64,000 nt of DNA from an uncultured Methanosarcinales archaeon (GCA_964497645.1 CAZCCU010000002.1:3525-67524), one strand, 5' to 3'. Counted from the first letter of the stretch, positions 2,835 through 35,888 are shown. Numbers and translations: made by a program. Notes: generated by a model not told the origin, from the letters alone.

Positions 2835-3097
2835 CACATCCTTCCCTTATGCGCAACAGGACGGTCACGGAAGGTTTTTCTCAGGTAAATCATATCAGCA
2901 GACGCCTTTTTCACAGTCTCCTGGTCTTTGGTCACGTTTCTTAATTGAAGAAGACGCCTTATAACGGGAGCGTAACCATCACGCTTGACCAACCTTTCAA
3001 GAAGCAACCTTCTTTGACTCTGAGGTAGTTTCTTGCTCCAGCCGCCAAGCTTCCCAGACTCGAAGTGCGCCCACTTGCGAATGTATTTCTTCGGCAT
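2831..3097 (-). CDS. Hypothetical small basic protein
   Basis: It is an 88-aa ORF with coherent basic, helix-like composition that fills the gap between two genes. No motif was recognised. Confidence 0.3.
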   Translation of the reverse strand: MPKKYIRKWAHFESGKLGGWSKKLPQSQRRLLLERLVKRDGYAPVIRRLLQLRNVTKDQETVKKASADMIYLRKTFRDRPVAHKGRMC

Positions 3098-3195
3098 AAT
3101 CTGCCATTATGCAGTCTAAAGATAAAATAGTTCATAGTCACGAAGGAGTGAGCAGAGATATCATGTTAAAATTAATAATTGAAAAAAATAAAAAA

Positions 3196-4809
3196 TTATT
3201 GTTTACGGTGCCCGTATGCTACAATCACGATCAAACTAACAATAGCCAGCAAAGCAATTATGAACGTCGACGTGCTGAAAGTACCTTCAGGCAAGTTCAT
3301 AACGCCAGTCGCTGCAGGGAACGTAACTCCCCCTGTGAATAGTGCCACAGGTGATGGCGATACAGACGTGAAAGTATAGGGGCAATCACAACGCACACAA
3401 TTCTTATTGTTGTTTGCATTGTCGTTAGCATTCTTGAGACACTCTTGGTATGCGCGCCAAATAGCGCCGGCAAATGCGGTCGGATGAATTGAAAGCTCAA
3501 CATTCTTTGCGGCTTCCAAGTCGGCAATACTAATGAAGTTGTTGCCAACGCCAGTATTGCCGCAACCAGGCGCATAGACCAAGGTAGTTCCGATCACAGA
3601 GCCATGTCGGACATTGAGTGTCATAGTTGCAAATTGTACTGACAGCATGTATGCCATGTTAGTGGCAGTACCGCCCAAAAGCCACTTCTTGAGGGCTGTC
3701 TTGCCAGCGCTTATTTGCGTAGCTGTCGGAGTAGGGCAGTTTGCAGTGGCAACAGGATCGAAGTCCGACCCATCCGCGTTTCTTAGGTTCAGAGCGGTCA
3801 GGGCGCAGAGGTCTGATCCTGTGATCAAGGCCTGGCCGTTCTTGTTGGACCAAAAGCCGAGTGTGAAGCCTCCGCACGCTCCGAGGCAGACATTACCAAA
3901 CTCAACGAGCGCAGGTGGAGGAAGCGTTACTTCTACACTTGTAGGTGTTGTATCAATCCAATTCATTTCCAGCGGCACTCCTTCTACTACAGTATAGGTG
4001 CCTGGTGGTAAAAATTGGCTGAAAGGCGTTGATTCTTCGTTGCCATTGATGAATATCTGCCAGCCTGGAAGGTCATTGAAGTCATCATTAACGCCATTCA
4101 CGTTCGCATCGCAGAATTTGATGACTGTCAATAGGAATGATTGTCCAGGACAATTTGTGAAGAAATCAGTTGGACAAGGTAAGCATGGCTCTGGACTCTC
4201 TACTGAGCTCGTAACAATCGAACAAGATGAGCATGAGCTCGTAAGACTGCCACTATCCAGCGCATTGTTGATGCTGTCGACAACACTGTTGAGGCCTGAT
4301 ACAGTCCCACCGCACGTTGCTGAAGCAAGCAGCGCTCCTCCTAAAACAGATTCAGCGTCTGCTAAAATGGCACCCACTGTATTTCCAGCGCAGGGTCCAA
4401 CACCGACAATAAGGCTTGCAAGCCCTGACGGAGTGTCTCCATCGTTGGACATATCTACTGAGATTGCAAGTGCTAATACTTGTCCCGCGAATACTCCTGC
4501 TTCAGTTGCCAAAGGATCAGTATGATCCATTGTGAGTACACCAGGCGTGCCAGACGCAGGCAGGAAGCTTGTAATATCGCCAGTGCCGGAAAATGCAATC
4601 GTAAATCCATCGCCAATAGTGAAAGGCGTTTCTGAGTTATCCTCAAGAAAGCAACCTGGCTGATCTGGCGGGTGTGAAGGCTCAGGGCAAGCACTTCCCC
4701 AACCACCTTGTGTACGTGTGCAGGGAATTGGAGTGTCTTGAGCACTCACCATCGCGACGCTCATCAATGCAATTGATAATATTGTTATTAAAGTTAGAAT
4801 TTGTTTCAT
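3196..4809 (-). CDS. Secreted surface protein with a C-terminal TM anchor
   Basis: The signal peptide reads MKQILTLITILSIALMSVAMVSAQD. The body is Gly/Thr/Ser/Cys-rich. The C-terminus ...LPEGTFSTSTFIIALLAIVSLIVIVAYGHRKQ has a motif, a TM helix and a basic tail, which is a sorting-signal-like layout. Confidence 0.6.
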   Translation of the reverse strand: MKQILTLITILSIALMSVAMVSAQDTPIPCTRTQGGWGSACPEPSHPPDQPGCFLEDNSETPFTIGDGFTIAFSGTGDITSFLPASGTPGVLTMDHTDPLATEAGVFAGQVLALAISVDMSNDGDTPSGLASLIVGVGPCAGNTVGAILADAESVLGGALLASATCGGTVSGLNSVVDSINNALDSGSLTSSCSSCSIVTSSVESPEPCLPCPTDFFTNCPGQSFLLTVIKFCDANVNGVNDDFNDLPGWQIFINGNEESTPFSQFLPPGTYTVVEGVPLEMNWIDTTPTSVEVTLPPPALVEFGNVCLGACGGFTLGFWSNKNGQALITGSDLCALTALNLRNADGSDFDPVATANCPTPTATQISAGKTALKKWLLGGTATNMAYMLSVQFATMTLNVRHGSVIGTTLVYAPGCGNTGVGNNFISIADLEAAKNVELSIHPTAFAGAIWRAYQECLKNANDNANNNKNCVRCDCPYTFTSVSPSPVALFTGGVTFPAATGVMNLPEGTFSTSTFIIALLAIVSLIVIVAYGHRKQ

Positions 4810-4857
4810 GTTACCACCCCTATTTTTACCAGTTGTTGCTGAATGATGTATTTAAGC

Positions 4858-5319
4858 TTATCTAAACGTCCCAACCATGATGCCTTTCACGTTCACAAAT
4901 GCCACCAGCCACGGGTCTGCAACAGGGTTCGCCGTTCCTTTTGTCCTGTAAAAACTGCTTCCATCCTGGTCAATAATCTCAATAACCATGTGAAGCACTG
5001 TTTTGTCAACAGAAGGCTCGTAAAACGAAATAACATCGCCAATATGGACTTCATCCGCAGACTCCGGAACCTTTTCAAACACGACAGAGTCATGAGTTAT
5101 CAAAGGAGCCATGCTGTCAGAGCTCACCCTGGCATACCTAAGGCCAGGATAAGCTATCTGCACCTCATCAGCATATACTTTGTAAGAATCAAAAGGAATC
5201 CGCTGCGTGCTCTCCACTACAACATCGGTTGTGGCACTTCTAAAACCAATAGGAAGAGGCACGTTCAGCGAGAAACCTAAGAACAAAAATACAACCGCAA
5301 TTAACACCCCTTTAAACAT
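4858..5319 (-). CDS. Signal peptidase I (S26B, Sec11/archaeal type)
   Basis: It has an N-terminal TM helix. VSSDSMAPLI carries the catalytic Ser box, GDVISF is box D, and YRTKGTANPVADPW is the TKGDNN-like box E. Confidence 0.75.
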   Translation of the reverse strand: MFKGVLIAVVFLFLGFSLNVPLPIGFRSATTDVVVESTQRIPFDSYKVYADEVQIAYPGLRYARVSSDSMAPLITHDSVVFEKVPESADEVHIGDVISFYEPSVDKTVLHMVIEIIDQDGSSFYRTKGTANPVADPWLVAFVNVKGIMVGTFR

Positions 5320-5471
5320 ACATTTACCCCCGCATAGTTAAGTCGTGGATCTGTTTAAAAAGTTTCGTTGTCACTTCTGAGTGGAGTGGGGAATAAATGC
5401 TCTACCAGTATACAAAAAAGTAAACTTTTTATACACAAAGCCTATTTTACTATCCTAAGAGGGAAAAAAGA

Positions 5472-7346
5472 GTGAAATCACCAGCAGGATTACTATTCGC
5501 AGCATTGCTCGCAATTGCAATCGTTTCTGCAGCAAACGTAACTATCTCGCCCACTGCCATCTATGAAACAACAACTGCCTGGGAGACAGTCGACATAAGC
5601 AATTACAAAGGAACTTCTGTCATAAATGAAGTAGAAGTCGAAACAACAACTTTACCAATCACTGACTCAGAATCATATTTGGGATGGACAAAAGTGCAGG
5701 ATGCAGACAGCGTACTCTGGAAAGACGGAAGCATAGAAACAAACGTCAAAAGCTCAGTATTCGAATTCAAAGTAACCGCGCCAAACGTCAGCGCGGACAC
5801 AACCGAAATCGTAAAAGTCTCTCTGAACTCAATAGCAAAAACATACAACATCACAATTCTCAACGACGCAAGCCCGCCAGACATCACAAACATAAAACCA
5901 GAAAACTACGCCAGAGCAAACAACCCGGCACAATCAGTCAGCGCGACAATCATAGATGAAGAAACAAGCGTCTCAACAACATCATATAAGTGGAGCGACT
6001 GCAGCGGCGAAGACACAACAATAATTCTGACAAAAAGCAACAACACGTACGCAGGCACAGCAGACTTCACAGGCTATGATGAAGGAGAAAAAGCATGCTA
6101 CACATTCACAGCAACAAACGCTCCAGGAGAAACAGCAACAAAAACAGGAGAACTATTATTTGACGGCACTCCGCCAAACGTGACAATAATCTCGCCAACA
6201 ACATTCGCAACAGAAAGCACAACATTCTCATTCACAGCATCAGACAACATAGCAACAGTATTAACTTGCGTGCTGAAGCTCGACAGCACAGAACTGGGAA
6301 CGTATAACGCAAACAACGGAAGCACAAAAACAGCAACCATAGACCTAAGCAACTTCAGCGAAGGCAGCTACACTTGGAGTGTAACGTGCGAAGATGGAGT
6401 AGGCCTGACAGCAACACACGCACAAGCAATACTATTAGACACGCAGCCTCCAGCAATAACTCTCGCCTACAACCCATTCCTTCTCAGAACACGAACAAAC
6501 AATTTCATAGCAACAATAATTGACGCGATAGGACTCGCGAGCGTCAATTCGACATTTGAAGGAAACGACGTTGCGCTATCCCAGTCAGGAAACGCGTACA
6601 CAGGAAGCATCAGCTCAAACACATTAGGAACAAAAACACTGGAAGTCAAAGCAGTAGACGGCGTAGGACACTCAACCACAGAAACAAAAACAATAACAGT
6701 CGTTCCAAACCACCAGATAACACTCACATTGAATCCGTCAACAACAACTGAAGGCACAGCAGTAATAGCATCAGGAACACTCACAACAGACGGAAACGTA
6801 ACAGAAGACGACGTCGCGGTAAAAACGCCAAGCGGAGACTTCACAGTAGAATTAGACGAGAACAACGCGTACAGCATACCATTCAGCGCGCCAAACCCAG
6901 GCACGTACACAGTAACAACAGAATACACAGAAGACGGCTACACGTACAAAGCAGAAGCAACATTACTAGTGCAATCACCAAACGCACAGCGGATAGAAGG
7001 AACCTCTGGCATAGGAGCGGAAGCATGGAGAACGAGCGGGTACGTCAAACCAGACGATCCACTGCCAACAACCAGCTCAGACAGCAATAACGCAGTAATA
7101 CCAGACGAGCCAATAGAACAGCCAACCGCGCCTCCACCAGCAGAATACGAGCCGCTGCCACCAGAAGCACCAAGAGACGCGCTCATACCAAAAACAACAG
7201 GAATATTCACGCTAAGCAAAGGCATCAAATGGCTCGCACTACTCTTAGCACTGGCACTTATCGCAGGCCTGGGAGTTTACGCTTACAAGAAACGACCAAA
7301 AGATGACTCAGGCATTGACTGGAACGGGTACTTCAAAGGAAAGTAA
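5472..7346 (+). CDS. Thr-rich cell-surface protein with Ig-like repeats and a C-terminal TM anchor
   Basis: The signal peptide reads MKSPAGLLFAALLAIAIVSAANVT. The body contains many N-x-S/T sequons. A Pro-rich stalk PTAPPPAEYEPLPPEAP precedes the TM helix WLALLLALALIAGLGVYAY and a KKRPK basic tail. Confidence 0.65.
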   Translation: MKSPAGLLFAALLAIAIVSAANVTISPTAIYETTTAWETVDISNYKGTSVINEVEVETTTLPITDSESYLGWTKVQDADSVLWKDGSIETNVKSSVFEFKVTAPNVSADTTEIVKVSLNSIAKTYNITILNDASPPDITNIKPENYARANNPAQSVSATIIDEETSVSTTSYKWSDCSGEDTTIILTKSNNTYAGTADFTGYDEGEKACYTFTATNAPGETATKTGELLFDGTPPNVTIISPTTFATESTTFSFTASDNIATVLTCVLKLDSTELGTYNANNGSTKTATIDLSNFSEGSYTWSVTCEDGVGLTATHAQAILLDTQPPAITLAYNPFLLRTRTNNFIATIIDAIGLASVNSTFEGNDVALSQSGNAYTGSISSNTLGTKTLEVKAVDGVGHSTTETKTITVVPNHQITLTLNPSTTTEGTAVIASGTLTTDGNVTEDDVAVKTPSGDFTVELDENNAYSIPFSAPNPGTYTVTTEYTEDGYTYKAEATLLVQSPNAQRIEGTSGIGAEAWRTSGYVKPDDPLPTTSSDSNNAVIPDEPIEQPTAPPPAEYEPLPPEAPRDALIPKTTGIFTLSKGIKWLALLLALALIAGLGVYAYKKRPKDDSGIDWNGYFKGK

Positions 7347-8156
7347 ATGGTGCTGGAACAATTCCTTGACAGAAAACTAGTCATAAAGCACTTTCCCTTT
7401 GTCTTCATTCTCAGCGCAATCTACGTATTCGTCGCATACGCAGTCCAAACACTGTTTTTTCCAGGCCAAAGCATAGCAACAGTTCTACTGCTGACAATAC
7501 TGCTTGTTCCCAGCCTGCACCATCTGATAGTAATCGAAGAAAAAATAGAAAGAACAGGAGCCTCGCACTTCTGGAAAAAACACCGCACGATAGTAAAGTG
7601 CTATGTAGGAGCGTTCTTCGGACTTCTAGCCGGATTTTTAGCGCTCGGATTTGTCAACTCGGAAACGCTCTCATTCCAAATAAGCCAGCTCGAACAAGAC
7701 CACCTGAAACCAACCGCAATCGAAAATTTTGCAGGCAGGCCCTACATTCCAGACGTCCAAACAGCAATCGCACTATTCTCGCACAACGTAAGGTACTTGC
7801 TTATCGGATTCATACTATCAATCTTTTACGGAGCAGGATCGGTTTTCCTAATAGCGTACAACGCATCATTCTTCGCAGCATTTGTAGTAGAGTTGTTTTC
7901 ACGATGGACAACAGCAATACAGATGGCATCAATATCACTGGTTCACCTGCTTCCAGAAAGCACGGGCTACATTCTGACCGCAATAGCGGGAGCGACACTA
8001 TCGCGCGCCATCATACACGAAAAATTAGCCAAAGCGCCATTCAGAAACGTGCTCAAAAACTGCTTCATCCTGCTCGTACTAAGCCTGATATCGCTCCTTT
8101 TAGCAGCATTTATAGAAACATACGTGACTGCAAGCGTGTTTCACAGAATGATCTAG
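7347..8156 (+). CDS. Polytopic membrane protein, SpoIIM/DUF95-like
   Basis: It has at least 6 TM helices. The segment HNVRYLLIGFILSIFYGAGSVFLIAYNASFFAAF resembles the SpoIIM/DUF95 core. Its start codon abuts the stop of the upstream surface-protein gene. Confidence 0.5.
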   Translation: MVLEQFLDRKLVIKHFPFVFILSAIYVFVAYAVQTLFFPGQSIATVLLLTILLVPSLHHLIVIEEKIERTGASHFWKKHRTIVKCYVGAFFGLLAGFLALGFVNSETLSFQISQLEQDHLKPTAIENFAGRPYIPDVQTAIALFSHNVRYLLIGFILSIFYGAGSVFLIAYNASFFAAFVVELFSRWTTAIQMASISLVHLLPESTGYILTAIAGATLSRAIIHEKLAKAPFRNVLKNCFILLVLSLISLLLAAFIETYVTASVFHRMI

Positions 8157-10111
8157 TTTTTCTCGAAAATGAGCTTCTTGAGACCGTTTAGAATCATTTC
8201 ATTGTTATCCAATGTTTCACCAGCATTCCTGTATTGAATGCCAATCTTATCTGCAGGGATGCCTGAAAGCATTGTCCTTGCAGATTTGATCTTATCAAAC
8301 AATCCATTAAACTCGGCTTCCTCAATTGGCTTTTTCTGCAGCTCTGTTTTGTCGTCATATCTTTTCTGAATTGAGTCAATGCCGTCAAGAATCGGTCTGA
8401 CGAATGAGCTTTGCACAGTGTTGAACATGTCAACAAATGGGCCATACGCTTCGAATTCTTTTTTCAACCCTGTATATTCCTCGACGAGAACAGGGTGTTT
8501 TTGCTTAACGTCATCATTTTGCACGGCTGTTTCTGCCCTTTTAAGACAGTCCCCAAACGCAACATAATCCTGAGAATCATTATATTTCTTTGCGCCCCTC
8601 AGCAATCCTGTGGCGCTCTTGTTGGACAATGCGACATTCACATCTCTTTCCAAAGTGCCGAGCCTGTCCTTAAGAGGGTCATACCTCACTGTTTTTGGAA
8701 GTTTTTCAAATAGTTCTTTGATACGTGCTCCGGCCTCAGTTAGCTCTCCAGTTTCATAGAGTCCGTTTATCTCAGCAATAGTTTGCTCAATAGTTTTGTA
8801 ATTCAGACGCGTATCCAGTTCCTGTTCTTTGTACCTGAGTTTTTTTCTTTGCCTTCGTGTTCTGTCAAGCTCTGCCTGGAGTTCAGCAGGTGTGAGCTGC
8901 TTTTGATCTCCCTGCTCGGCATGCTTTTGTTTTTTTATGATGTCTCCCAGTTCTGCCTTCATTTCACTCATTTTCCACCGGTCACCAGGCACTTTCGAAC
9001 GTGCGACTTCAATAGTTGTCGCGAATTCAGGCGAAATACCAGTTCCGTGCTCCCAGACATATGATGGATGAGGGACGTCAAGCTGTCCGAGCGAGTGAGC
9101 AAGAACTGTGAAGTCTGTGATTTCGTATGCCCTCTTTCCAGTAACTGCAGTGTAAAGAACGGTTCCTAACTGGAAAGTATCGGTTTCTTCAGTTATCTTT
9201 TCAGCACGAACCTGTTCAGGCGCCATGAAATGAGGCGTGCCAACGGGTTTGTTTTGAAGTGTGAGCCCCTCATCATCATCAACCCATTTGCCGATGCCAA
9301 AGTCTATAATTACAACACTGCCATCTTCTCGTATCTTTATATTTGCAGGTTTGAGATCGCGATGAATAACGCCTTGTCCGTGCGCGTACTGCAATGCGTC
9401 AGCGAGCTGATACCCGATCTTGGCAGCCTGATCCAACGGAACCTTTTGGCCCGGCAACTGCTTCTGCAACTCGTCAAGGGTTTTTCCCTCAATCCACTCG
9501 AATAGAAGGCAATATCCCATTTTGGGATCGTTCACGATTCCAAGGCGCTTGACGATGTTCTTGTGATGCAACTTTTGCAGTATGAGGTTTTCCTTTTGGA
9601 ATCTGCTTATGAATTCCTTTTGTACAGAAGCATCCAGTTCTTCGTTTTCTCTTGTGCGAGGCTTAAGCACCTTGACGGCAAGCTGGCTGCTTTCCAAGAA
9701 ATAAGGATCGATAAGCTCAAGGAGTGAATGGTAGTGCTCTTTTGCGGCTTTAGGATCTTTTTTATGAAGTTCGGCATACTCCTGCCACATCGCGTACGCG
9801 GCAGTATAGATTTGTTTGATGTGATCTTTGTCCGTGATAGGCTTTGGAACCCAATCATCGAGTTTTGTCGTTGGAGCTTCAAATGGAATGTCGTTCAGGC
9901 CAAAGAGCACAGGGTTTTCCTCTCCCCAGACCATACGTTCCGCGAGAATCGACATCGCGTTTCCCCTCTTGGCGCGCCAGACTTCGCCCATTCCGCCATA
10001 CGCAACGAGCTCTTCAAGAAAAGCAATATTATTCTTTAAAGCAATAGGCTGTGGAGAGACAAGTATGGTTTTATCGCCTAGTGGACCTCCACCTGCTCTC
10101 GTATCCGTCAT
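8153..10111 (-). CDS. Hanks-type Ser/Thr protein kinase with a ~330-aa C-terminal extension
   Basis: GGMGEVWRAK is the Gly loop, LAVKVLKP carries the VAIK-type Lys, and HRDLKPANIKI followed by DFGIGK is the catalytic loop plus DFG. APE-like TPHFMAPE follows. The C-terminal helical, charged region is unassigned. Confidence 0.8.
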   Translation of the reverse strand: MTDTRAGGGPLGDKTILVSPQPIALKNNIAFLEELVAYGGMGEVWRAKRGNAMSILAERMVWGEENPVLFGLNDIPFEAPTTKLDDWVPKPITDKDHIKQIYTAAYAMWQEYAELHKKDPKAAKEHYHSLLELIDPYFLESSQLAVKVLKPRTRENEELDASVQKEFISRFQKENLILQKLHHKNIVKRLGIVNDPKMGYCLLFEWIEGKTLDELQKQLPGQKVPLDQAAKIGYQLADALQYAHGQGVIHRDLKPANIKIREDGSVVIIDFGIGKWVDDDEGLTLQNKPVGTPHFMAPEQVRAEKITEETDTFQLGTVLYTAVTGKRAYEITDFTVLAHSLGQLDVPHPSYVWEHGTGISPEFATTIEVARSKVPGDRWKMSEMKAELGDIIKKQKHAEQGDQKQLTPAELQAELDRTRRQRKKLRYKEQELDTRLNYKTIEQTIAEINGLYETGELTEAGARIKELFEKLPKTVRYDPLKDRLGTLERDVNVALSNKSATGLLRGAKKYNDSQDYVAFGDCLKRAETAVQNDDVKQKHPVLVEEYTGLKKEFEAYGPFVDMFNTVQSSFVRPILDGIDSIQKRYDDKTELQKKPIEEAEFNGLFDKIKSARTMLSGIPADKIGIQYRNAGETLDNNEMILNGLKKLIFEKN

Positions 10112-17938: not shown

Positions 17939-18352
17939 ATGATTCGTCTTTACGGGAGCGATACGCTTTTCATAATCACAGGCTGGTTCTACAATGAACA
18001 AGATGGTCACAATAGCGGCAATTTTCCATTTGGCGGTCATTTTAATCTTGATTCTGAAAAACGTCTTGAAGGCAGGCTGTCTGACGACGGCGGCGCCTCG
18101 CGCATAAACGGCACGATGACACGCGGCGTACTTGAGTTTGAGAAAACATATGAGCCTAAAGGGATTCACAAAAAACGGACATATTATTACAAATTCGAGA
18201 AAAAAAGCGGAATCTGGGTGGGAGGCTGGTTCACTCGAAAGATAGAGACCACCTACCTTGACAATAATCCTTCCCTGCAGGCGCGCTGCCAGACACTGCG
18301 TGCTTGGGATGCTTACCGCGCGATGAATAAACTACGCCTTGATAAAAGATAA
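17939..18352 (+). CDS. Hypothetical protein
   Basis: It is a 137-aa ORF with no recognised motif. Confidence 0.35.
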   Translation: MIRLYGSDTLFIITGWFYNEQDGHNSGNFPFGGHFNLDSEKRLEGRLSDDGGASRINGTMTRGVLEFEKTYEPKGIHKKRTYYYKFEKKSGIWVGGWFTRKIETTYLDNNPSLQARCQTLRAWDAYRAMNKLRLDKR

Positions 18353-18440: not shown

Positions 18441-18448
18441 TTTATATA
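18441..18448 (+). promoter_or_regulatory. Archaeal TATA-box-like element upstream of the lipoprotein gene
   Basis: TTTATATA lies about 40 nt upstream of the ATG at 18487. Confidence 0.3.
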
Positions 18449-18486: not shown

Positions 18487-19980
18487 ATGCTTAATGACAA
18501 CAACACCCAGTCAAAATCACCTTCAACACTCGAATCACTATTAGATTTCTTCAGACTTAAAGCAGTTCCAGTTGTCGCAGCAGTCGCAGCAATTACAGGA
18601 TGCAGTGCAACAGGCACAAACGAGGCATCAGATGAAGCCAAGGGCCGTCTCGACACAAGAATTCTTCCAAAAGAATACAGCGTTAAAGACGCAAATCAAG
18701 TTAATGAAGCACTTGACAAACAAATCAAGATCGACACAGATTCTGCAAAAAGCTTAAGCCAATTCGAAGATGCACGCCTAAAAAACCTGAAAAAAATCGT
18801 AGACAAACTTCCAGGAACAAGCGCAGACGTCAAAGCATTCAACGAGTTAGAAAGACAAAACGAATTATTGTATAATTTGTTCAAGACAACCGGAATCAAG
18901 CACGTACTTATCCGCGATTTGAAGCGCAACGTCGACGTTGGCTCACTTCAATTACCAGAACTTTCAAATGACCAGATTTCACAGGCAATGAGCTACCTTG
19001 CGCCACTGAAAGTATCACTTGACGCAAAAGACCTCAGCTATGATGCACGACAAAAGCTCAGCAAGCGATTTGGCAAAAATGCAGACTATATAAAAATGTC
19101 TGAGTACAACCAAATCCTGTTGACGCTGCTCGACCAAATGTCAGCAACCCAGGCAAAAATAAACCATCATGAATTCCAACTGAACCAAATCGCATCAGCA
19201 GAAGACCTTACGGTAAAGATCAACAAGTCAATTTCTGGCAGAAAAGTAAACGATGTAACGGTTGCCAATGACATGTACGAGCATGGCGAACAAGCGCTCG
19301 CAGCAATAAGACCTTTGCCGGTAACCGGGCGTATCTCAAAGGAAAGCCCACTGGGAGAAGAATACTCAGACTTCGGAAGCAAAACAATAGGCGCGTTGTA
19401 CGATGCTATAATGACCGCTGCAGAAAAAGAAGCAGCAGACTACGGCAGAGGCAGCAAGCACACAATCGGACAATTCCACTATTTCCACCTGAAATCAATC
19501 GGAGACCAACTGCACAAAGCAGGAATCTTGAGAGACGAAGACTGGATAGCACTTGAAAAAGTCATGACAAGAGACTTTGCCAGAAAAGTCGTTCACGCAC
19601 TTCCAGAAGAAGAAAGCGTCAAACTCCTGCCAACACTCGGCAAAGCAGTACCGCTCGTCGGATGGTACTTTGGCGGCAAGAGCTTAGTAAGACTATTGCA
19701 AAACACAACTTACTCCTCAGGATCAATCATGGGCATAGTCAAGGACGGCACGTACCAGCAATATGGAGCTGGCACAGGATACAACAGAAAGGACAACAAC
19801 GCACAAGACCTTGCTGATGTAATCTCAACCGGAACTTCAATGGTGATTTCTGGCATAGGAGCCTACTTAATCTATGATCATAACAGATCAAGCAGCAGCG
19901 ATAGTGGCAGCGGCGGAAGCTCATCCGGCCCTGCAGGACTCTTCGGCACAGAAATAGGAGGCCCGGGTACAGGACCATGA
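18487..19980 (+). CDS. Putative lipoprotein translationally coupled to the giant surface-protein gene
   Basis: AVPVVAAVAAITGCSATG is a lipobox-like signal. The tail is Gly/Ser-rich. Its stop overlaps the giant-gene ATG as ATGA. A TATA-like box at 18441-18448 favours the ATG at 18487 over the ATG at 18454. Confidence 0.55.
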   Translation: MLNDNNTQSKSPSTLESLLDFFRLKAVPVVAAVAAITGCSATGTNEASDEAKGRLDTRILPKEYSVKDANQVNEALDKQIKIDTDSAKSLSQFEDARLKNLKKIVDKLPGTSADVKAFNELERQNELLYNLFKTTGIKHVLIRDLKRNVDVGSLQLPELSNDQISQAMSYLAPLKVSLDAKDLSYDARQKLSKRFGKNADYIKMSEYNQILLTLLDQMSATQAKINHHEFQLNQIASAEDLTVKINKSISGRKVNDVTVANDMYEHGEQALAAIRPLPVTGRISKESPLGEEYSDFGSKTIGALYDAIMTAAEKEAADYGRGSKHTIGQFHYFHLKSIGDQLHKAGILRDEDWIALEKVMTRDFARKVVHALPEEESVKLLPTLGKAVPLVGWYFGGKSLVRLLQNTTYSSGSIMGIVKDGTYQQYGAGTGYNRKDNNAQDLADVISTGTSMVISGIGAYLIYDHNRSSSSDSGSGGSSSGPAGLFGTEIGGPGTGP

Positions 19981-22900
19981 TGAAAAAACTCTTACTAGCA
20001 TTACTTGTACTTTTAGCAATTCCAATAGTCCACGCAGCAGCTGACGTCACGTACAATTTCAACCAGAACAACGTCAACGCATCAGTTTACAACTGCCTTG
20101 ACTCAGCATGCAACCAAGTCGGCACGTTCGGCGGAAGCATAAGAGACGGTCCAAACGTCACAGACGGAACACTCACAATCAGATATCCAGATACTCTAAA
20201 CACGCACGGATACGGCGCATTCTTCGTAAGCAAAGGATACAGACCATTAGAAATCAGAGCAACTTGGCATACAAACGGAAACACCGGAATCGCCAGCACA
20301 TCAGTCAACTACGAATTCACCAAATACCCGATCACCTGCCGTGCAGTCGTATCACAATTAACATTCGTAAACGAATTACAACCGAACGTACCATTAGTGG
20401 TTAACATGTCTGCAAAACTTGACGCCCAGACAGCAAGCGCATTCCAATTAACCAACAACGAAGTCGGCTATGTGCCTCCAGAATTCAAGCAGGAATACTA
20501 CGGTGCTGACACCATTGTCAAAATGGAAGTGCTCCAAAGCGGCTCAGTCGTACACAGCCAGCAGCAGGAATTCAGCGCAGTCAAAGGCAACTCACTGATC
20601 GCAGACAGCACAGTACCAGTGCAATTCACATACCTGCCAACATCAACAGGAAATTTCGCAGTAAAAGTCACAGCACAAGTCGTTGACGACCAGTGCGCGG
20701 CAACAGAAGACGTAAACGCGCAAGGAGCGTTCACAGTATTACAAGCACTGCCAACAAGCCAATTCTACACAATATTGAACGGTTTAACGATCAACAACAC
20801 GCACCCGCGAATCGGACAACCAGTACTAGTTTCATACAACAAGATAACAAACCACGCAGACGGCGTACTAGGACCATTAACACCAGTCCAGACAGACGTA
20901 GATTATATCGTAAAGAACGGCGCAACAACAATATTCAGCCATACTACAACCCTGTTCGAAAACCCAGACGCAGTCAACCCAGTAACATACTCATTCACGT
21001 TCAATCCAACATCAGCAGGCGTATATAATATAACAGTCAAAGGCAGAGCAAACTCGGCAATCCCGACCACGAACCCAGAAATAACAGACGAAGAAAGCCT
21101 GCTCCTTACAGTAATCGGCTCAATGTCATACAAAGTAGCATTTAACGTAAGAAACGCAGACAACGGAACGCCAATAGAAAACGCAAGCGTTTCACTCTCA
21201 GGAATTGGAACAAACGCGACAAACGCAAATGGAACAATAAGCTTCTCACCAGTTCCAGAAGGAATGTACACTTACACGATAACAGCCCAAGGATTCGGAA
21301 CAAAGAACGACAAAGTAAGCGTCACCACAGACAAAACAATATCAGTTTCACTGCACTCAGGCGCAAACGAAAGCGACGCGAACACAGCACCATTCATGAA
21401 CCTTCCAAACCAGATTGAAGTAGAAACAGACTCATACGCACGATTCAACTACCACGACTACGTCCAAGACGACCAGGACTCAGACAGCTCACTCGTATTG
21501 AGCGTTGTCAGCGGAGACGACGACATTACAGTCAACATCAACCAATTAACAGGCGTTGTAACATTGACTCCAGAACCAAGCTTCAGCGGAAGCAACACAA
21601 TCCGGTTCAGAGTGACTGACACTCAAAACGCATCAGAAACAGACAGCATCACAGTCACTGTTGACGCGACCGCAGTCGCGCCAGTCTGGGCAACAGTCTC
21701 AGACATTGAAACAGATGAAGACACGGCAGCAGTACGCGTATTGAACTTAAGAGAATTTGTTTCAGACGCAGACACGCCAGTCGCAAACCTTGTCTTCAGC
21801 GTTGTCGGAGTTGTGCCAAGCACGCTAGCAACAGCACAAATCGACAACGGCCAATATTTGACAGTATATCCAAAGCCAGACGCAAACGACTTTGGAACAA
21901 TCAACGTCACAGTATCAGACGGCACAACAAGCGTTGAAACAAGCATAGACTTGGACGTAACACCAGTCAACGATGCGCCAGTAGTCATTGCTGTTCCAAG
22001 AATACCAAACATCAACGAAAGCACAAACTACACGCTGAACTTATCACAAGTATTCAGAGACGTAGACGGAGACCCATTATACTTCAACGTCACAGAAACA
22101 ATGAATGTAGGCTTTGCAATCAGCAACTCAGCACAACAGATGACAATACTTCCGGAATTCAACGTCACCGGCACAAGAACATTCAACGTCACAGCAACAG
22201 ACCCAAGCGGTCTGAACGCAACAGCAACATTCACACTCTACCTGAACTTTGTAGACGACTCACCATTCTTCACACAAGTCATACCAGGCATATTAACATT
22301 TGAAGAAACACCAAACTCAAGAGACCTGTCTCCATACGAAGATGACCCAGAAGACGGACCAGGCGCAAACGGAAACACACTCACATGGAAGATGCAACTG
22401 GCAAACCAGAGCAACGTCACACCTGTAACTTTCATCAGCCATCCAATATTCAACGCATCAATAAACACAACTACAGACTTCTTCCTAGTATTGCCAAAAG
22501 CAAACCAGACAGGAATCGTAGAAATGACACTGTACTTGTTCGACAGCACAGGAAAGAACGTATCACAAAACATAACAATCAACATCACAAACGTCAACGA
22601 CGCGCCAGTATTCGTAAACTTGAGCAACCAAGTCGTAGAAGCTGGAACAGCATTTGTCTATGACGTAAACGCAACAGACTCAGACCCAACAAATGATACA
22701 CTTGCGTTCAGCTTGAACAACGTCACGCCATCACTTTCAGGATTCAGCATCGACAGCGCAACAGGCATGATCAACTACACTCCAATGGTTAACGGAGCAT
22801 TCAACGTATCATTGCAAGTATGCGACAACTTCAGCGCGTGCACCAACGGAACGTTCGCTTTAACTGTTACAGACATCACAGCACCAGTACCAGACGGCCA

Positions 22901-25900
22901 GATAACGCCTCTAAACCCAAGCGTATACGCACCAAACGCAAGCTACACCTGGGGAATCAACTGGTCAGACAACGGAAACATAACAAACGTAACATTCCAG
23001 CTAGGAAACACGAACTTCACAAACGTAACACAAACCGGAAGCTTCTACCAGACAACACTACTTGACCTTGCCGCAGGAAATTACACATTCGCATGGTTCG
23101 CAAGAGACGGCGCAAACAACGTCAACATGAGCAATTCAAGCAATTTCACAATCCTGAAAGCAAACAGCACAATGGACCTATTGCTTAACGGAACAGCAGG
23201 AAACATAACAGTACCACAAACAAGCAATGTTACAGTGATGGCAAACATCACAAACACCACAGGAACTGTTTCAATATTCAGAGACGGCAACCTTGTAGGA
23301 ACAGGCGCAGCGCCATTGTCAATCAATCAATCATTCCCAGACCAAGGAACGTTCAATATCACCTCAAGCTTTGCAGGAGATCAGAATTACACAGGAACTT
23401 CAGCCACGCACTTCGTAATAGTGCCAGACACGACTCCGCCAGTATTTGGCACACAAACAGTAAGCCCAGCATCACCAGCAATGTTCACATCATTATACAA
23501 CTTTAAAGTAAGCGTGACAGACAACGTTGGAGTAGCAAACGTCACACTTGAATTAGACAATGCAACAAACAGCACAGCTTCACAGATAGGCAACACCAGC
23601 ACATGGGAAGCAAACCTGACATTCATATCGGTTGGCAACCACAGCTTCAAATGGTTCGCAAACGACTCAGCAGGCAACCAGAATTCAACTGCCATAAGCA
23701 ACTACACAGTCACACCAGGAATCGCAGCACTCACATTGACGATAAACGGAGTAGCAGGCAACACGAACGCGCAAGTAAGCGATTCAGTCACATTTGTCGC
23801 AAACGTAACAAACCCAGCAGGCGGACCAGTACAATTGTACATCAATGGAACGCTTGCATCAAGCGGAGCCTCACCTTTAACACACGTCACAAGCTTCGCA
23901 AGCACCGGAACAATGCCGATATTGGCACTATTCCCAGGCGATGCAAACGTAGCAACTGGAAACATCACAAGAACCCTCACGATAACACCAATTGTAACAT
24001 CAGCAAACATAACGCCAGCAAGCGGAGCATCATTGAACTACAGCACATTCCTCATCGCGCTTGACACAAATGGCGCGACAACCTGCAAGTGGAGTTTCAC
24101 AGACGTAGCACAAGGAAGCATGACAAACAGCTTCACCACAGCAAACGGTCTGCAACACACAGCAAACGTCACAGGCTACTTGCTAGGACCATTCAGCGTC
24201 TCAGTAGCATGCAACGGGCAGAGCGCAATCACAAACACAGACTTGAGCTACACAGCACAGAACTTCCTAGACGGAAGCACACTAAACGGCCTGAACAACA
24301 TAAACAACAGCATATTCACACAAGGAATATCAAACGTCTCAACAGTACTGAACAGCAACATAACCACGAGCGAGTCAACAAACAGCGCACTTACGAACGT
24401 TACAGCAATAAACTCAGAATTCATTGATTCAACCCTGACAAACTGCGTCGTGACAAACAGCATAGTCAAAGACATCATAGCAACAGGATGCACGTTCACA
24501 GACAGCTTTGTAGACCCAAGCAACCTGACAGGAAGCACTATAATATCAAGCAACACTATTGACAGCAACGTAACATTCTCAAACGTAACAGACAGCACGA
24601 TAGTGAACGCAAACGTCAACAACAGCAACGTAATGGACAATTCGGTAATACATGTTGGAATCAACAATGTTGAAAGCAGCAACCTTTCAAACGTTCACAT
24701 GCACAATTCAAATGTCACAAATTCAGCACTTACAGACGTATTTATGGATTTGACAGTTGTTACAAACTCAGTCATCGACTCCGCAGATTTCATATACAAT
24801 TCAACAATAACCGACTCAACGCTAGTAGATGTCCTTACGATAAGAAACTCAATCATCACAAACTCTTATGTTGAAGATTCAAGCCTATTCGATGTCACAG
24901 TAATAGACGCGAACATCACCAGCGGAGTCATATACAGTGGTGTAATAATCTCTCACTTGATTAACCTGACATACAACGCAACTCAAGACGGACCATCAAA
25001 CCTGACCAATTTTGTAAACTATGCGCCTTTTGTTTTAATGACGATAAGCCCAACCAGCGGAATCAGAGTTGGAACAACTGTAACTTTCACAGCAAACGCG
25101 TCAGACGTAAACATTGGCACACTGCTTAACGATTCAATCGTAAGATACGAATTTTACTTGATTGACGATAACACTCCTACAATAACTGTCAATACCTCAA
25201 ACACATCTGTAAGCGTCACACACGCATACAATGCAACAGGAACATACTTCCCATTCGTATTAGTTTATGATTCATTCGGAGAAGTCGGAGGCTTTGGTGA
25301 TACGGTAAACGTCTCAGCAGCACCAAGTTCAGGAGGCGGCGGAGGCGGTGGCGGTGGAGGCGGTGGAGGAGGCGGTGGTGGAGGCGGCGGAAGCAACATA
25401 CCACGCATAGCACTCACAGACACACCTGTCACAAGAATAGTCTACCAAGGACAGCCATTGCAGTTCAGCATCGAAGGCAAATTACAGCCATTGAGCGTCA
25501 CACTGCGAAGAGTGGTTATCAGCGGAAACGGTTCAACAGAATGGATGTCAAACGGAGCCCAATCAACAGTAATGACAGGCGAGCACATGCTCTTCGACCT
25601 TACAAGAGATAATATTCCAGAACTAGACCTAGAAGTTTTGAGCGTCAGCAGAGGCAGCACAACAATAAGCATGAAACTAGCAAGCGCACCAAGCGTTACA
25701 ACAATGCCTCCATTGCCAGTATTCAACTTCACACCAGTACGAGAGCAGCAACCGCCAGTGGTTCCACCACCAGCAGTTGTTCCAGTAGTACCAGTAGTAG
25801 AAGAGGAAGAAGTTGAAGTCAAAGCAGAAGTCAAGCAAGGCTTCTGGCAGAAACTCAAGGACATGTTCACAATCAAGCTCTCAGCAAAATCAGCAGCTGT

Positions 25901-25979
25901 GCGAATAGGCATAGTTATTGCAGTTGTTGTAATCGGCTTGATAGCGTACGCATTCTTCGTGCGCTGGGAATCATTTTAG
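19977..25979 (+). CDS. Giant (2000 aa) type-I membrane-anchored surface protein or adhesin
   Basis: The signal peptide reads MMKKLLLALLVLLAIPIVHAAADV. Repeated Ig/cadherin-like modules end in VNDAPV. A pentapeptide-like periodic segment follows, then a run of about 20 Gly, a Pro/Val linker PPVVPPPAVVPVVPVVEEEE, and a C-terminal TM helix IGIVIAVVVIGLIAYAFFV. Sequons are extremely frequent. Confidence 0.8.
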   Translation: MMKKLLLALLVLLAIPIVHAAADVTYNFNQNNVNASVYNCLDSACNQVGTFGGSIRDGPNVTDGTLTIRYPDTLNTHGYGAFFVSKGYRPLEIRATWHTNGNTGIASTSVNYEFTKYPITCRAVVSQLTFVNELQPNVPLVVNMSAKLDAQTASAFQLTNNEVGYVPPEFKQEYYGADTIVKMEVLQSGSVVHSQQQEFSAVKGNSLIADSTVPVQFTYLPTSTGNFAVKVTAQVVDDQCAATEDVNAQGAFTVLQALPTSQFYTILNGLTINNTHPRIGQPVLVSYNKITNHADGVLGPLTPVQTDVDYIVKNGATTIFSHTTTLFENPDAVNPVTYSFTFNPTSAGVYNITVKGRANSAIPTTNPEITDEESLLLTVIGSMSYKVAFNVRNADNGTPIENASVSLSGIGTNATNANGTISFSPVPEGMYTYTITAQGFGTKNDKVSVTTDKTISVSLHSGANESDANTAPFMNLPNQIEVETDSYARFNYHDYVQDDQDSDSSLVLSVVSGDDDITVNINQLTGVVTLTPEPSFSGSNTIRFRVTDTQNASETDSITVTVDATAVAPVWATVSDIETDEDTAAVRVLNLREFVSDADTPVANLVFSVVGVVPSTLATAQIDNGQYLTVYPKPDANDFGTINVTVSDGTTSVETSIDLDVTPVNDAPVVIAVPRIPNINESTNYTLNLSQVFRDVDGDPLYFNVTETMNVGFAISNSAQQMTILPEFNVTGTRTFNVTATDPSGLNATATFTLYLNFVDDSPFFTQVIPGILTFEETPNSRDLSPYEDDPEDGPGANGNTLTWKMQLANQSNVTPVTFISHPIFNASINTTTDFFLVLPKANQTGIVEMTLYLFDSTGKNVSQNITINITNVNDAPVFVNLSNQVVEAGTAFVYDVNATDSDPTNDTLAFSLNNVTPSLSGFSIDSATGMINYTPMVNGAFNVSLQVCDNFSACTNGTFALTVTDITAPVPDGQITPLNPSVYAPNASYTWGINWSDNGNITNVTFQLGNTNFTNVTQTGSFYQTTLLDLAAGNYTFAWFARDGANNVNMSNSSNFTILKANSTMDLLLNGTAGNITVPQTSNVTVMANITNTTGTVSIFRDGNLVGTGAAPLSINQSFPDQGTFNITSSFAGDQNYTGTSATHFVIVPDTTPPVFGTQTVSPASPAMFTSLYNFKVSVTDNVGVANVTLELDNATNSTASQIGNTSTWEANLTFISVGNHSFKWFANDSAGNQNSTAISNYTVTPGIAALTLTINGVAGNTNAQVSDSVTFVANVTNPAGGPVQLYINGTLASSGASPLTHVTSFASTGTMPILALFPGDANVATGNITRTLTITPIVTSANITPASGASLNYSTFLIALDTNGATTCKWSFTDVAQGSMTNSFTTANGLQHTANVTGYLLGPFSVSVACNGQSAITNTDLSYTAQNFLDGSTLNGLNNINNSIFTQGISNVSTVLNSNITTSESTNSALTNVTAINSEFIDSTLTNCVVTNSIVKDIIATGCTFTDSFVDPSNLTGSTIISSNTIDSNVTFSNVTDSTIVNANVNNSNVMDNSVIHVGINNVESSNLSNVHMHNSNVTNSALTDVFMDLTVVTNSVIDSADFIYNSTITDSTLVDVLTIRNSIITNSYVEDSSLFDVTVIDANITSGVIYSGVIISHLINLTYNATQDGPSNLTNFVNYAPFVLMTISPTSGIRVGTTVTFTANASDVNIGTLLNDSIVRYEFYLIDDNTPTITVNTSNTSVSVTHAYNATGTYFPFVLVYDSFGEVGGFGDTVNVSAAPSSGGGGGGGGGGGGGGGGGGGGSNIPRIALTDTPVTRIVYQGQPLQFSIEGKLQPLSVTLRRVVISGNGSTEWMSNGAQSTVMTGEHMLFDLTRDNIPELDLEVLSVSRGSTTISMKLASAPSVTTMPPLPVFNFTPVREQQPPVVPPPAVVPVVPVVEEEEVEVKAEVKQGFWQKLKDMFTIKLSAKSAAVRIGIVIAVVVIGLIAYAFFVRWESF
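25332..25391 (+). repeat. (GGN)20 triplet tract encoding a run of about 20 glycines inside the giant surface-protein gene
   Basis: The sequence is ggaggcggcggaggcggtggcggtggaggcggtggaggaggcggtggtggaggcggcgga. Confidence 0.9.
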
Positions 25980-26032
25980 TTTTTCTTCTTAGAATTGCAA
26001 TTTATCTGTAGCTCTACGGCTTTATTTTTAGC

Positions 26033-35351: not shown

Positions 35352-35888
35352 CTAGGCACACAGTTCTCTCAATCTCTTCAAAGCGCGAGCCTTGAAAGTG
35401 CGGACTTTTGACGCCGGTACTTTCAGCATAGCCCCAATTTCAACAAAAGTATGCGGTTTTTGGTCGTACAAACCATAATGGGAAGTAATCACGTACCGCT
35501 CATGCAGAGGCAAAGACTTCACTTCCCTGCAAAGCCTGTTAATAGCCGACCGGTCCTCTCTATTAATGATGTCATCCAGCGGAGTCCGCCCATGCGCAGC
35601 ATCATGATCAAGAGAGTCAAACGGCTCAAAGTGCCTCGACCGGCGCTTTTCAGTCTTAGTGATGTCCATAATCTTACGGCCCATGCACGTACAGACATAC
35701 GTTGAAAAAGATCCTTTTTTAGGATCATACTTCTGGGCAACTTCCCACATCCTGAACGCTGCTTCCTGCGCAGCATCATCACGCAGATAAAGAGGGCTAC
35801 GATTTTTTGCCATCGCATACGCCAAGCGCATATGAGAAGCAACCAAAGAGTCAACCGGCTTATTACTTCCCTGATAGTCCCCACTCAT
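35352..35888 (-). CDS. Sigma-70-family protein (regions 2 and 4; ECF-sized, 178 aa)
   Basis: Region 2 reads DDAAQEAAFRMWEVAQKYDPKKGSFSTYVCTCMGRKIMDITKTEKRR, against the consensus D-L-V-Q-E ... F-S-T-W-L ... Rxxxd. Region 4.2 reads LPLHERYVITSHYGLYDQKPHTFVEIGAMLKVPASKVRTFKARALKRLRE, against RFGL..TLEEIG....VTRERIRQIE.KALRKLR. Confidence 0.65.
   Translation of the reverse strand: MSGDYQGSNKPVDSLVASHMRLAYAMAKNRSPLYLRDDAAQEAAFRMWEVAQKYDPKKGSFSTYVCTCMGRKIMDITKTEKRRSRHFEPFDSLDHDAAHGRTPLDDIINREDRSAINRLCREVKSLPLHERYVITSHYGLYDQKPHTFVEIGAMLKVPASKVRTFKARALKRLRELCA

Follow-up and report, generated by a model that had tools for sequence, protein, structure and literature searches.

A sequon-rich giant protein and its N-terminal head family in Woesearchaeota: a candidate cell-envelope component

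Introduction

What is the role of a 2,000-residue protein, rich in N-glycosylation sequons (N-x-S/T, x not P), that is encoded among housekeeping genes of an archaeal chromosome? The question is raised by a 64,000-nucleotide (nt) stretch of DNA recorded as from an uncultured Methanosarcinales archaeon (GCA_964497645.1 CAZCCU010000002.1:3525-67524), here called the window, with positions counted from its first letter. A reading of this stretch from the sequence alone (the sequence-only reading) had placed one open reading frame (ORF) at 19977-25979 and taken its product, here the giant, for a heavily N-glycosylated S-layer or adhesin-type protein of a small-genome archaeon. The ORF is single and its coordinates are exact. 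Computational follow-up strongly implies that the giant is an exported, C-terminally anchored, acidic, multi-immunoglobulin (Ig) surface protein of a Woesearchaeota clade. It is offered as a lead rather than a discovery, a candidate main coat protein that rests on computation.

Sequon excess in the stalk

The giant contains 92 sequons (60 NxT and 32 NxS), or 4.6 per 100 amino acids (aa). Shuffling of the whole protein gave 41.5 +/- 5.4 and shuffling within 50-aa windows gave 45.2 +/- 5.5 (z ~9). None of 2,000 shuffles attained 92, and the density remarked on from the sequence alone is thus far above composition. Distribution along the chain is uneven. Observed and expected counts agree in the N-terminal head (aa 22-385, 5 vs 5.7) and in the membrane-proximal domain (aa 1813-1915, 1 vs 0.8). 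They part in the cadherin-like repeats (aa 471-965, 25 vs 9.4; 5.1 per 100 aa), in the PKD domain (6 vs 2.0) and above all in the Ig pairs (aa 966-1320, 30 vs 9.9; 8.5 per 100 aa, z 7.5), where the sequon-dense string NGTAGNITVPQTSNVTVMANITNTTGTVS lies at aa 1071-1099. The periodic block, a predicted solenoid, shows no significant enrichment (15 vs 11.8). Of the 92 sites, 60 fall in the cadherin, Ig and CarboxypepD_reg modules. The earlier description of sequons every few residues therefore fits the middle part of the protein and fails at its two ends.

Could the excess be a by-product of beta-strand chemistry, of the solenoid's pentapeptide consensus A-[DN]-[LF]-[ST]-x or of repeat amplification, in a protein that is sparsely glycosylated or not at all? 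Most sequons have V, A, I or L at their central position, as expected of strands with alternating exposed and buried residues; the consensus itself includes a sequon, in a solenoid rich in Asn, Ser and Thr; and the oligosaccharyltransferase AglB was not found in the part of the giant's genome covered by the window. Strand alternation is nevertheless ruled out as the source. The mirror motif [ST]-x-N, equal in composition and in i/i+2 strand alternation, occurs no more often than expected (43 vs ~41), and of 20 residues tested at the first position of X-x-[ST] only Asn is enriched (z 8.5), with Asp, Gln and Ser at expectation. The consensus was likewise rejected, as the solenoid supplies 15 of the 92 sites and its family-wide contribution, an excess of 1.7x, is below the 2.63x of the Ig/cadherin stalk. 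Further, the beta-rich head of the giant is neutral, the homologous heads of the short proteins described below are nearly sequon-free, the internal repeats are too divergent for recent amplification, and other secreted proteins of the genome are depleted in sequons. A by-product of this kind is regarded as very improbable.

This depletion was quantified within the window. Other proteins with a signal peptide or a large external part hold 31 sequons where 49.6 would be expected (Poisson P=0.003); in cytoplasmic proteins the count is neutral (33 vs 35.9). Sequons thus appear to matter in this organism, which is the pattern expected if an oligosaccharyltransferase is active and glycosylation is consequential. 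The depleted secreted or anchored proteins are encoded at 179-1552, 3196-4809 (-; 0 sequons vs 5.8 expected), 44770-49809 (a 1,679-aa subtilase with a MopE-like motif) and 50588-54772 (a 1,394-aa orphan whose two ends each carry hydrophobic sequence).

Together the counts strongly imply, at the level of sequence, that the stalk of the giant has been selected to carry N-glycosylation sequons and that its two ends have not.

Lineage and conservation of the locus

Fifteen full-length orthologs were found in the databases (40-66% identity, 1,866-2,842 aa), the named ones being Candidatus Woesearchaeota. Below these, matches fall abruptly to bacterial Big_9/cadherin repeat proteins that cover ~20% of the query. 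A scan of species-representative genomes returned 25 loci, one per genome, in Woesearchaeota, Nanoarchaeia or Nanobdellota; its patterns were tuned to giants, and the single-copy and exclusivity counts given here rest on it. A 523-aa fragment 100% identical to the giant occurs in a Joint Genome Institute (JGI) metagenome.

Across more than 25 genomes with full-length orthologs, the gene order is fixed as PolB ... L15e - partner gene - giant ... helix-turn-helix (HTH) gene - GrpE - DnaK. The small-genome archaeal host that had been suspected is borne out by the family B DNA polymerase (PolB) and ribosomal protein L15e neighbours and by credibly named orthologs from Woesearchaeota, Nanoarchaeia and Nanobdellota; judged from its sequence, the host is a Woesearchaeota (DPANN) archaeon. 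Nine other metagenome-assembled genome (MAG) records with the title 'uncultured Methanosarcinales archaeon' (L009, L010, L011, L013, L017, L022, L025, L026 and L029) carry a typical Woesearchaeota locus, with PolB 59-92% identical to that of the window. The 'Methanosarcinales' title of such third-party records is probably a taxonomic mislabel. Relative to locus L001, identity is 57% for the giant, which is collinear end to end, 78% for PolB, 91% for DnaK and 69% for L15e. Vertical inheritance of the giant gene, fixed in its locus, is strongly implied by these sequence comparisons.

Sequon enrichment is shared by all 15 database orthologs (4.0-7.0 per 100 aa, z 6.6-14.6, reverse motif at expectation), in which the signal peptide and transmembrane (TM) helix are conserved as well, and by every full-length giant gene of the genome scan (z 8-17). 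Individual sites are less constant: 24 of the 92 query sequons are kept in at least 12 of the 15 orthologs and 20 in three or fewer, and the family alignment has 456 sequon columns, 236 of them singletons. A conserved core with many singleton columns points to a density maintained through turnover. Summed over 16 proteins, the ratio of observed to expected sequons is 1.08 in the head, 2.63 in aa 386-1410, 1.70 in the solenoid, 1.87 in the PKD domain and 1.05 in the basal domain. Such a conserved, family-wide excess argues for selection for N-glycosylation. The heavy N-glycosylation first proposed thus gains from the conserved excess in every full-length ortholog and from the occurrence of AglB in the lineage, the glycans themselves being predicted.

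Two orthologs depart from the common length. In P0014 (2,432 aa) a complete Peptidase_S8 (subtilase) domain is inserted between cadherin-like repeats, and P0008 (2,842 aa; L003/L004) has ~5 additional copies of the sequon-rich Ig-pair module. Insertion and duplication suggest that the stalk is a modular spacer of variable length.

Architecture of the giant protein

The signal peptide, VNDAPV modules, 20-Gly run, Pro/Val/Glu stalk and single C-terminal TM helix that had been noticed at first are all present in the sequence (Table 1). The signal peptide, MMKKLLLALLVLLAIPIVHAA, has a KK n-region, a 14-residue hydrophobic core and small residues at -3/-1, with AD following the cleavage site. It is kept in all orthologs and family members, and the conserved mature domain begins directly behind it.

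Table 1. Coordinates of the giant protein's domains, its gene and the associated features in the window
Feature	Position	Strand	Basis
TATA-like box TTTATATA ahead of the two-gene unit	18441..18448	+	direct reading; putative promoter role
Partner gene, 508 aa as listed; likely true start ATG 18487, giving 497 aa	18454..19980	+	
Giant surface protein ORF, 2,000 aa, stop included	19977..25979	+	single ORF; orthologs known
Sec-type signal peptide, aa 1-21, predicted cleavage after VHA-A/AA	19977..20039	+	sequence; conserved in orthologs
Family-defining N-terminal head, aa 22-385, three beta-sandwich subdomains, two conserved Cys pairs	20040..21131	+	AlphaFold2 (AF2) model
CarboxypepD_reg-like beta-sandwich, aa 386-470	21132..21386	+	Pfam PF13620, aa 391-457, E 1.7e-8, above curated cut-off
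Five ~95-100-aa cadherin-like / Big_9 / 'tandem-95' repeats, aa 471-965	21387..22871	+	Pfam, NCBIfam
Four Ig-like domains in two pairs, aa 966-1325, most sequon-dense region	22872..23951	+	sub-threshold Big_3_5, Big_7
Ig-like domain with conserved Cys pair, aa 1326-1412; also in 615-aa mini-form P0048	23952..24212	+	AF2 model residues 24-107
Pentapeptide-repeat-type beta-solenoid, aa ~1430-1665, ~47 pentapeptides (~12 coils)	24264..24971	+	
PKD domain, aa 1686-1782, diverged in this genome	25032..25322	+	AF2, Foldseek, orthologs
20-glycine run, aa 1786-1805, predicted disordered, flexible hinge	25332..25391	+	predicted local distance difference test (pLDDT) <50
Small membrane-proximal beta-sandwich, aa 1813-1905, near-neutral charge	25413..25691	+	AF2 pLDDT 82-90
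Pro/Val/Glu-rich extended stalk, aa 1911-1954, then Lys-rich amphipathic juxtamembrane segment, aa 1955-1972	25707..25892	+	conserved in orthologs
C-terminal TM helix, aa 1973-1995, and 5-residue tail ...VRWESF	25893..25976	+	hydropathy scan
Oligo-T tract TTTTTCTTCTT, immediately 3' of the giant stop; candidate archaeal terminator	25980..25990	+	direct reading; putative function

Over aa ~480-965 Pfam matched Big_9, Cadherin_5, Cadherin_4 and He_PIG, families of the kind anticipated from the sequence, with Big_9 at E 1.9e-16 (61 bits, cut-off 23.6) in 4 stretches. The linkers between the five repeats are of the VNDAP type (ANTAPF, TAVAPVW, VNDAPV, FVDDSPFF, VNDAPVF); DVTPVNDAPVVIAV lies at aa 660-673 and NITNVNDAPVFVN at aa 869-881. 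The NCBIfam model tand_rpt_95 matched five stretches (E 2.7e-18) at 65.7 bits, below its whole-protein cut-off of 90, and NCBIfam gave nothing else on the giant, including no S-layer family. Tandem-95-type repeats are limited to aa 471-965, ~25% of the chain; by its sequence the giant holds a tandem-95 domain but is not a tandem-95 'repeat protein' by the NCBI rule. With DITAPVP and DTTPPVF added to the five cadherin-type linkers, aa 471-1325 is split into nine units of ~95-100 aa. The sub-threshold Pfam matches to Big_3_5 and Big_7 span aa 1078-1224.

The block first described as Cys-poor and beta-helix-like is real and could be refined to a pentapeptide-type solenoid by AF2 and Foldseek, though one conserved Cys pair is present. 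Hydrophobic autocorrelation peaks at lags of 5, 10, 15 and 20 residues. The model has a 3-residue strand per 5 residues (pLDDT 80-91) and is predicted to be four-sided. Foldseek matches included tailspike beta-helices besides HetL, Qnr, MfpA and AlbG (E 4e-5 to 1e-3), with low TM-scores attributable to the multidomain model. Pfam pentapeptide models were not significant here (Pentapeptide_4 E=0.95, 10 bits vs cut-off 38). Judging by alignment gaps, the solenoid is longer in the query than in most orthologs.

The PKD domain is sub-threshold in the query (Pfam PKD_4, aa 1690-1776, 17.5 vs 27 bits). Orthologs have PF18911/PF00801 matches and the WDFGDG motif, and the AF2 domain resembles the ColH PKD domain in Foldseek (TMt 0.72). 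The AF2 model of aa 1321-1925 (pLDDT 73) comprises, in order, an Ig-like domain, the solenoid, the PKD domain, the disordered Gly run, and a small beta-sandwich. A Gly-rich run is found in all orthologs. All giant orthologs conserve the 23-residue C-terminal helix, at hydropathy values of 1.9-3.0 or more. The NCBIfam models for PGF-CTERM and other sorting signals gave no match to the giant, which indicates a TM-helix anchor and not a lipid anchor. Lectin, LamG, toxin, protease and nuclease domains were not detected in it by Pfam or NCBIfam.

The composition is marked by T 12.8%, V 10.4%, N 9.8% and S 9.2%, with K+R at 3.2% vs D+E at 8.2% and a net charge of -101. The 10 Cys form five intradomain pairs. 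Predicted folds add up to sixteen beta-sandwiches and ~12 solenoid coils which, by typical domain lengths, would make a rod of ~60-80 nm if fully extended.

Envelope component or adhesin

We incline, with moderate confidence, to the view that the giant is a type I membrane glycoprotein and a constitutive, probably abundant component of the envelope, as an S-layer-like coat or glycocalyx. From the sequence, a Sec signal peptide would export the chain and a single C-terminal helix would hold it in the membrane, leaving 5 residues on the cytoplasmic side. The ~16 predicted beta-sandwiches and the pentapeptide-type solenoid would form a rod, joined to the membrane via the Pro-rich linker, the small basal domain and the poly-Gly hinge. 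On the model of the cadherin DxNDNxP motif, Ca2+ binding by the VNDAP-type linkers would probably make the rod stiffer. AglB may add N-glycans to the stalk, at up to ~1 site per 12 residues, giving a hydrated, protease-resistant and non-sticky coat. Head and basal domain would stay sugar-free for protein-protein contacts, the head perhaps with other heads or an outside ligand and the base with the membrane or with the lipobox protein encoded upstream. This partner lipoprotein may aid anchoring or assembly.

Codon usage served as a proxy for expression. The effective number of codons (Nc) of the giant, 35.2, is the lowest of 46 window ORFs (DnaK, 42.0). Its codon shift follows that of the L15e, DnaK, GrpE, NDK and DnaJ set (r=0.93, p ~1e-25) and is more extreme; relative synonymous codon usage (RSCU) of AAC, for example, is 1.72 in the giant, 1.26 in the L15e/chaperone set and 1.04 in the remaining genes. 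In genome L001 the giant ortholog again has the lowest Nc, of 24 genes (r=0.90). S-layer genes have been reported among the top-expressed Woesearchaeota genes in situ (PMC11606122).

AglB/STT3 genes are present in Woesearchaeota loci L008 (at 2514-5576, -), L026, L028 and L030, and 316 AglB homologs were found at E<=1e-30, mostly FKBP fusions. The Woesearchaeota proteins are ~1,000-1,140 aa long and usually carry the fused FKBP-type prolyl isomerase domain (L008/L026/L028/L030; P0198-P0317). The L008 AglB is itself sequon-enriched (10 vs 4.4).

Alternatively, the giant could be a host-attachment adhesin of an episymbiotic DPANN cell, in which the stalk pushes the head past the cell's own coat, the head or the cadherin-like repeats bind the host, and the glycans merely protect the stalk. 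Cadherin-like, tandem-95, He_PIG and PKD modules are typical of adhesins, and the closest matches outside the family are giant bacterial repeat proteins. Stalk length varies among orthologs through module duplication, as in P0008, and a subtilase is inserted in P0014. Giant C-terminally anchored proteins have been proposed as host-interaction factors in other DPANN (SPEARE, N. aerobiophila), and a sugar-free distal head is the expected look of a binding tip. The head, however, is the best-conserved region (56-60% column identity vs 24-46% in the C-terminal third) and is common to at least 524 clusters with very different stalks, the opposite of a host-specific tip shaped by an arms race. Further arguments against a host adhesin are the unchanging synteny with housekeeping genes, the single copy detected in each genome, a codon usage that equals or surpasses that of chaperone and ribosomal genes, and the failure to detect a lectin, LamG or toxin domain (Pfam, NCBIfam). 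The adhesin reading also presupposes a host-dependent organism. A constitutive envelope role is favoured over a host adhesin because of the widely shared head, the housekeeping-like locus, the single detected copy and the codon usage, and attachment to a host, also raised in the sequence-only reading, gains no direct support and is considered rather unlikely. Of the S-layer and adhesin types proposed from the sequence, then, the same evidence leans to a major envelope protein, albeit one that matches no known S-layer family.

Several points weigh against an abundant envelope component. Characterised S-layer families (SlaA/SlaB, haloarchaeal csg, Methanococcales S_layer_N/C) gave no match in Pfam, NCBIfam or PDB sequence and fold searches. 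A ~70-nm rod with cadherin-like 'tandem-95' repeats resembles a fibrillar adhesin more than a canonical two-dimensional lattice protein. The giant diverges faster than its housekeeping neighbours, and in genome L003, which is more distant, its codon bias does not recur (r=0.16). The surface ORF at 5472-7346 (+) is almost as biased (Nc 36.4, second-strongest in the window) and may itself be the true main coat protein. No AglB was detected in the window, and none of the 120 AglB homologs listed sits on the giant-bearing contigs of 875,259 and 784,236 nt. Finally, the signal peptide and TM helix are calls from hydropathy and conservation. The ORF at 5472-7346, a rival candidate for the main coat, encodes a 624-aa protein in which a signal peptide is followed by Thr-rich Ig-like modules (weak Big_13), then by a Pro-rich stalk and finally by a C-terminal TM helix; its sequon content is neutral (9 vs 8.7).

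A substrate or biofilm adhesin, comparable to bacterial Ca2+-dependent giant repeat adhesins, made at low to moderate abundance and tethering the cell to particles or conspecifics, would agree with the five tandem-95 repeats and VNDAP linkers, with the strongly acidic ectodomain, and with a fold similarity of the head to RbmA, a biofilm scaffold protein of V. cholerae, amid many generic matches. This is improbable, since there are only five repeats, making up a quarter of the protein; in place of an RTX or type I secretion system (T1SS) signal there is a Sec signal peptide with a TM anchor; RbmA is a weak match (TMq 0.27) among 152 generic beta-sandwich matches; and codon bias points to high expression.

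The preferred envelope reading makes the giant a concrete target for metaproteomics, glycoproteomics and cryo-tomography, and the head domain an annotation marker for envelopes in hundreds of MAGs whose proteins are now 'hypothetical' or 'PKD domain-containing protein'. Should the giant prove to be a host-contact organelle, it would offer a handle on episymbiont attachment.

The head family and its short forms

The head (aa 22-385) has no match in Pfam and no sequence or sequence-profile match in the PDB, and nothing relevant to its family was found in the literature searched. AF2, with a 15-sequence alignment, models it as all-beta with three sandwich subdomains (pLDDT 86.4; predicted TM-score (pTM) 0.71). 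The 152 Foldseek matches are generic tandem beta-sandwiches (TMq 0.2-0.3, ~10% identity), among them complement C3/C5 MG domains, transglutaminase C-terminal barrels, RbmA and alpha-2-macroglobulins; a viral structure library gave only Big/FN3 (phage) proteins. With matches this generic, assignment of a specific function from the fold was dropped.

An exhaustive search with a hidden Markov model (HMM) of the head found at least 524 cluster representatives, 241 at E<=1e-30. The head always stands straight after the signal peptide, in proteins of ~550 to 3,193 aa, and no second head-bearing paralog was found in the window (hmmsearch, all six-frame ORFs). In 162 sequences analysed, two regimes are seen. 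For the 21 giants, which are 1,800 aa or longer and end in a C-terminal TM helix, the median is 4.4 sequons per 100 aa (z 8.7); for the 117 head proteins without such a helix it is 0.32 (z -2.35). P0048 (615 aa) is a giant in miniature, with head, Asn/Thr linker, Cys-pair Ig domain, G/S run, stalk and TM helix.

Short forms, as read from their sequences, consist of the head, CarboxypepD_reg domains and a CARDB-like C-terminal domain, and the anchor is absent. In species-representative genomes they hold 0-1 sequons where 4-15 are expected. They reside in a separate conserved five-gene cluster for secreted proteins near DNA polymerase X (PolX), which in four genomes lies a few kb from aglB, and were accordingly ruled out as positional orthologs of the giant. 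On a 969-kb contig, the giant-tuned scan found a short form as the only head locus, and it is suggestive that giant and short form may exclude each other within a genome. The genes directly upstream of short-form heads have a layout similar to that of the giant's partner (N-terminal Cys after a hydrophobic stretch, hydrophobic segment, Gly-rich tail). Homology of the two kinds of partner found no support: an HMM built from 14 giant-locus partners matches no short-form partner at E<=1, and 0 of 400 shuffled controls.

We tentatively propose, as a possibility that falls short of probable, that in the main Woesearchaeota envelope protein the head serves as the module for contacts or lattice formation, built to two designs under opposite selection for N-glycosylation. 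The first would be a self-anchored giant, whose stalk gathers sequons (4-7 per 100 aa); the second an anchorless, nearly sequon-free short form in a five-gene cluster that repeatedly adjoins aglB. A lipobox protein gene would precede the head gene in both. If so, sequon content would be a tunable, lineage-specific design parameter of the archaeal cell coat, and one recognisable domain would mark the coat protein across hundreds of uncultivated DPANN lineages. The pair also forms a natural experiment on why some surface proteins gain N-glycan sites that their homologs exclude.

Relation to known surface proteins

Sequon-rich, Ig-rich, TM-anchored DPANN surface proteins are a class already described, in Nanobdella aerobiophila, whose authors state that no DPANN S-layer protein has been determined so far. 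Those proteins belong to the same GTDB phylum as the giant and resemble it in their signal peptide, in the large number of predicted N-glycosylation sites (14-52) and in having several Ig-like folds; many end in a C-terminal TM helix, some contain a parallel beta-helix, and they too lack similarity to classical S-layer families. They differ in having no detected sequence relationship, in length (900-1,320 aa vs 2,000 aa) and in coming from a thermoacidophile, whereas the giant's lineages were sampled from groundwater and lake sediment. The family-specific head, the cadherin-like repeats and the poly-Gly hinge are features of the giant, and its solenoid is of the pentapeptide type, not the pectin-lyase type. 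The giant is similar in sequon density to the N. aerobiophila proteins (36-52 sites in 908-1,320 aa) and ~2-4x as dense as S. acidocaldarius SlaA (31 in 1,424 aa, 2.2 per 100 aa), or about twice as dense over its whole length; the description of its density as extreme, made from the sequence alone, has to be moderated.

The SlaA/SlaB layer of Sulfolobales (eLife 2024, PMC10903991) also consists of heavily N-glycosylated Ig-like beta-sandwich proteins from two adjacent genes, with one component on a stalk with a C-terminal TM anchor and glycans that shield the surface. There is no homology, however. The canopy (SlaA) and anchor (SlaB) are separate, while the giant joins head and anchor in one chain, and its partner is a lipobox protein, not a coiled-coil stalk.

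Bacterial tandem-95/Big_9/cadherin-like giants (NF012211; PF17963, PF17892, PF17803) share the five ~95-aa repeats and VNDAP linkers of aa 471-965, with similarity over ~20% of the query, but have tens of repeats and are without the head, solenoid, TM anchor or sequon enrichment. SPEARE proteins of Nanohaloarchaeota (PNAS 2019, PMC6642349) are, like the giant, DPANN surface proteins of very large size; most of the chain is extracytoplasmic, a TM helix lies close to the C-terminus, and adhesion-type domains are present. They contain LamG domains, a serine protease and, on the cytoplasmic side, a large restriction-endonuclease region; the giant has a 5-residue cytoplasmic tail and none of those domains, a subtilase being inserted in ortholog P0014 only. 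Pentapeptide-repeat proteins (HetL, Qnr, MfpA, AlbG; Rfr fold) share the 5-residue periodicity, the predicted four-sided solenoid and the Foldseek matches, but those known are cytoplasmic and often DNA mimics, unlike the extracellular, probably glycosylated spacer predicted here. What is new relative to these systems is the unannotated head family, the conserved pairing of head gene and lipobox-partner gene, and the opposite sequon regimes of giant and short forms.

The partner gene and other features of the window

The partner's stop codon and the giant's start overlap by 4 nt (ATGA), and the TATA-like box lies ~40 nt 5' of the ATG at 18487, a start that agrees with ortholog N-termini. Genes 18487-19980 and 19977-25979 are best explained as one translationally coupled unit of a Woesearchaeota (DPANN) chromosome. 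The N-terminal hydrophobic segment of the partner protein runs up to a lipobox-like ITGC. Its middle is helical, and a C-terminal hydrophobic segment leads into a Ser/Gly tail that closes with GGPGTGP. Pfam, NCBIfam and the PDB gave no match to it. All giant loci examined have a positional ortholog of it, with the stop 0-10 nt from the head gene start. Divergence is very fast (16-35% identity to most orthologs). The features kept are the N-terminal hydrophobic stretch with lipobox-like Cys, the C-terminal hydrophobic segment and a Gly/Ser or Pro/Ser/Thr tail.

The terminal motif GG-x-x-G-P-G-T-G-P/N (window 19900-19980 and equivalents in L001-L031) stands at the extreme C-terminus, after the hydrophobic segment, an order unlike that of known archaeosortase signals. 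Its origin as a by-product of a ribosome-binding site for the giant gene is unsupported, with Shine-Dalgarno-like strings at variable distances (-20 to -37).

Neighbouring genes are archaeal: family B DNA polymerase, NDK and L15e, with an HTH regulator and GrpE-DnaK-DnaJ downstream. Between L15e and the partner gene, a 137-aa ORF at 17939-18352 (+) has no Pfam match. It has same-position counterparts in L013 (134 aa) and L014 (138 aa), and in L001 and L003 an extremely acidic ORF of 50-60 aa is found there instead. The tRNA and Rfam scans of the window were both empty. Strand composition is odd within the giant gene (window 20001-24000, AT skew ~+0.34, GC skew -0.16 to -0.21), owing to its strong preference for A- and C-ending codons (ACA, GCA, AAC, AGC, TCA).

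Two further genes lie on the opposite strand. A 178-aa protein at 35352-35888 (-) has Sigma70_r2 (1.2e-10) and Sigma70_r4 (2.9e-8) matches, a bacterial-type sigma-factor-like gene on an archaeal chromosome; the prevalence of such genes in Woesearchaeota has been published (PMC8204110). At 8153-10111 (-), a 652-aa eukaryotic-type Ser/Thr protein kinase is encoded (Pkinase, 1.5e-38).

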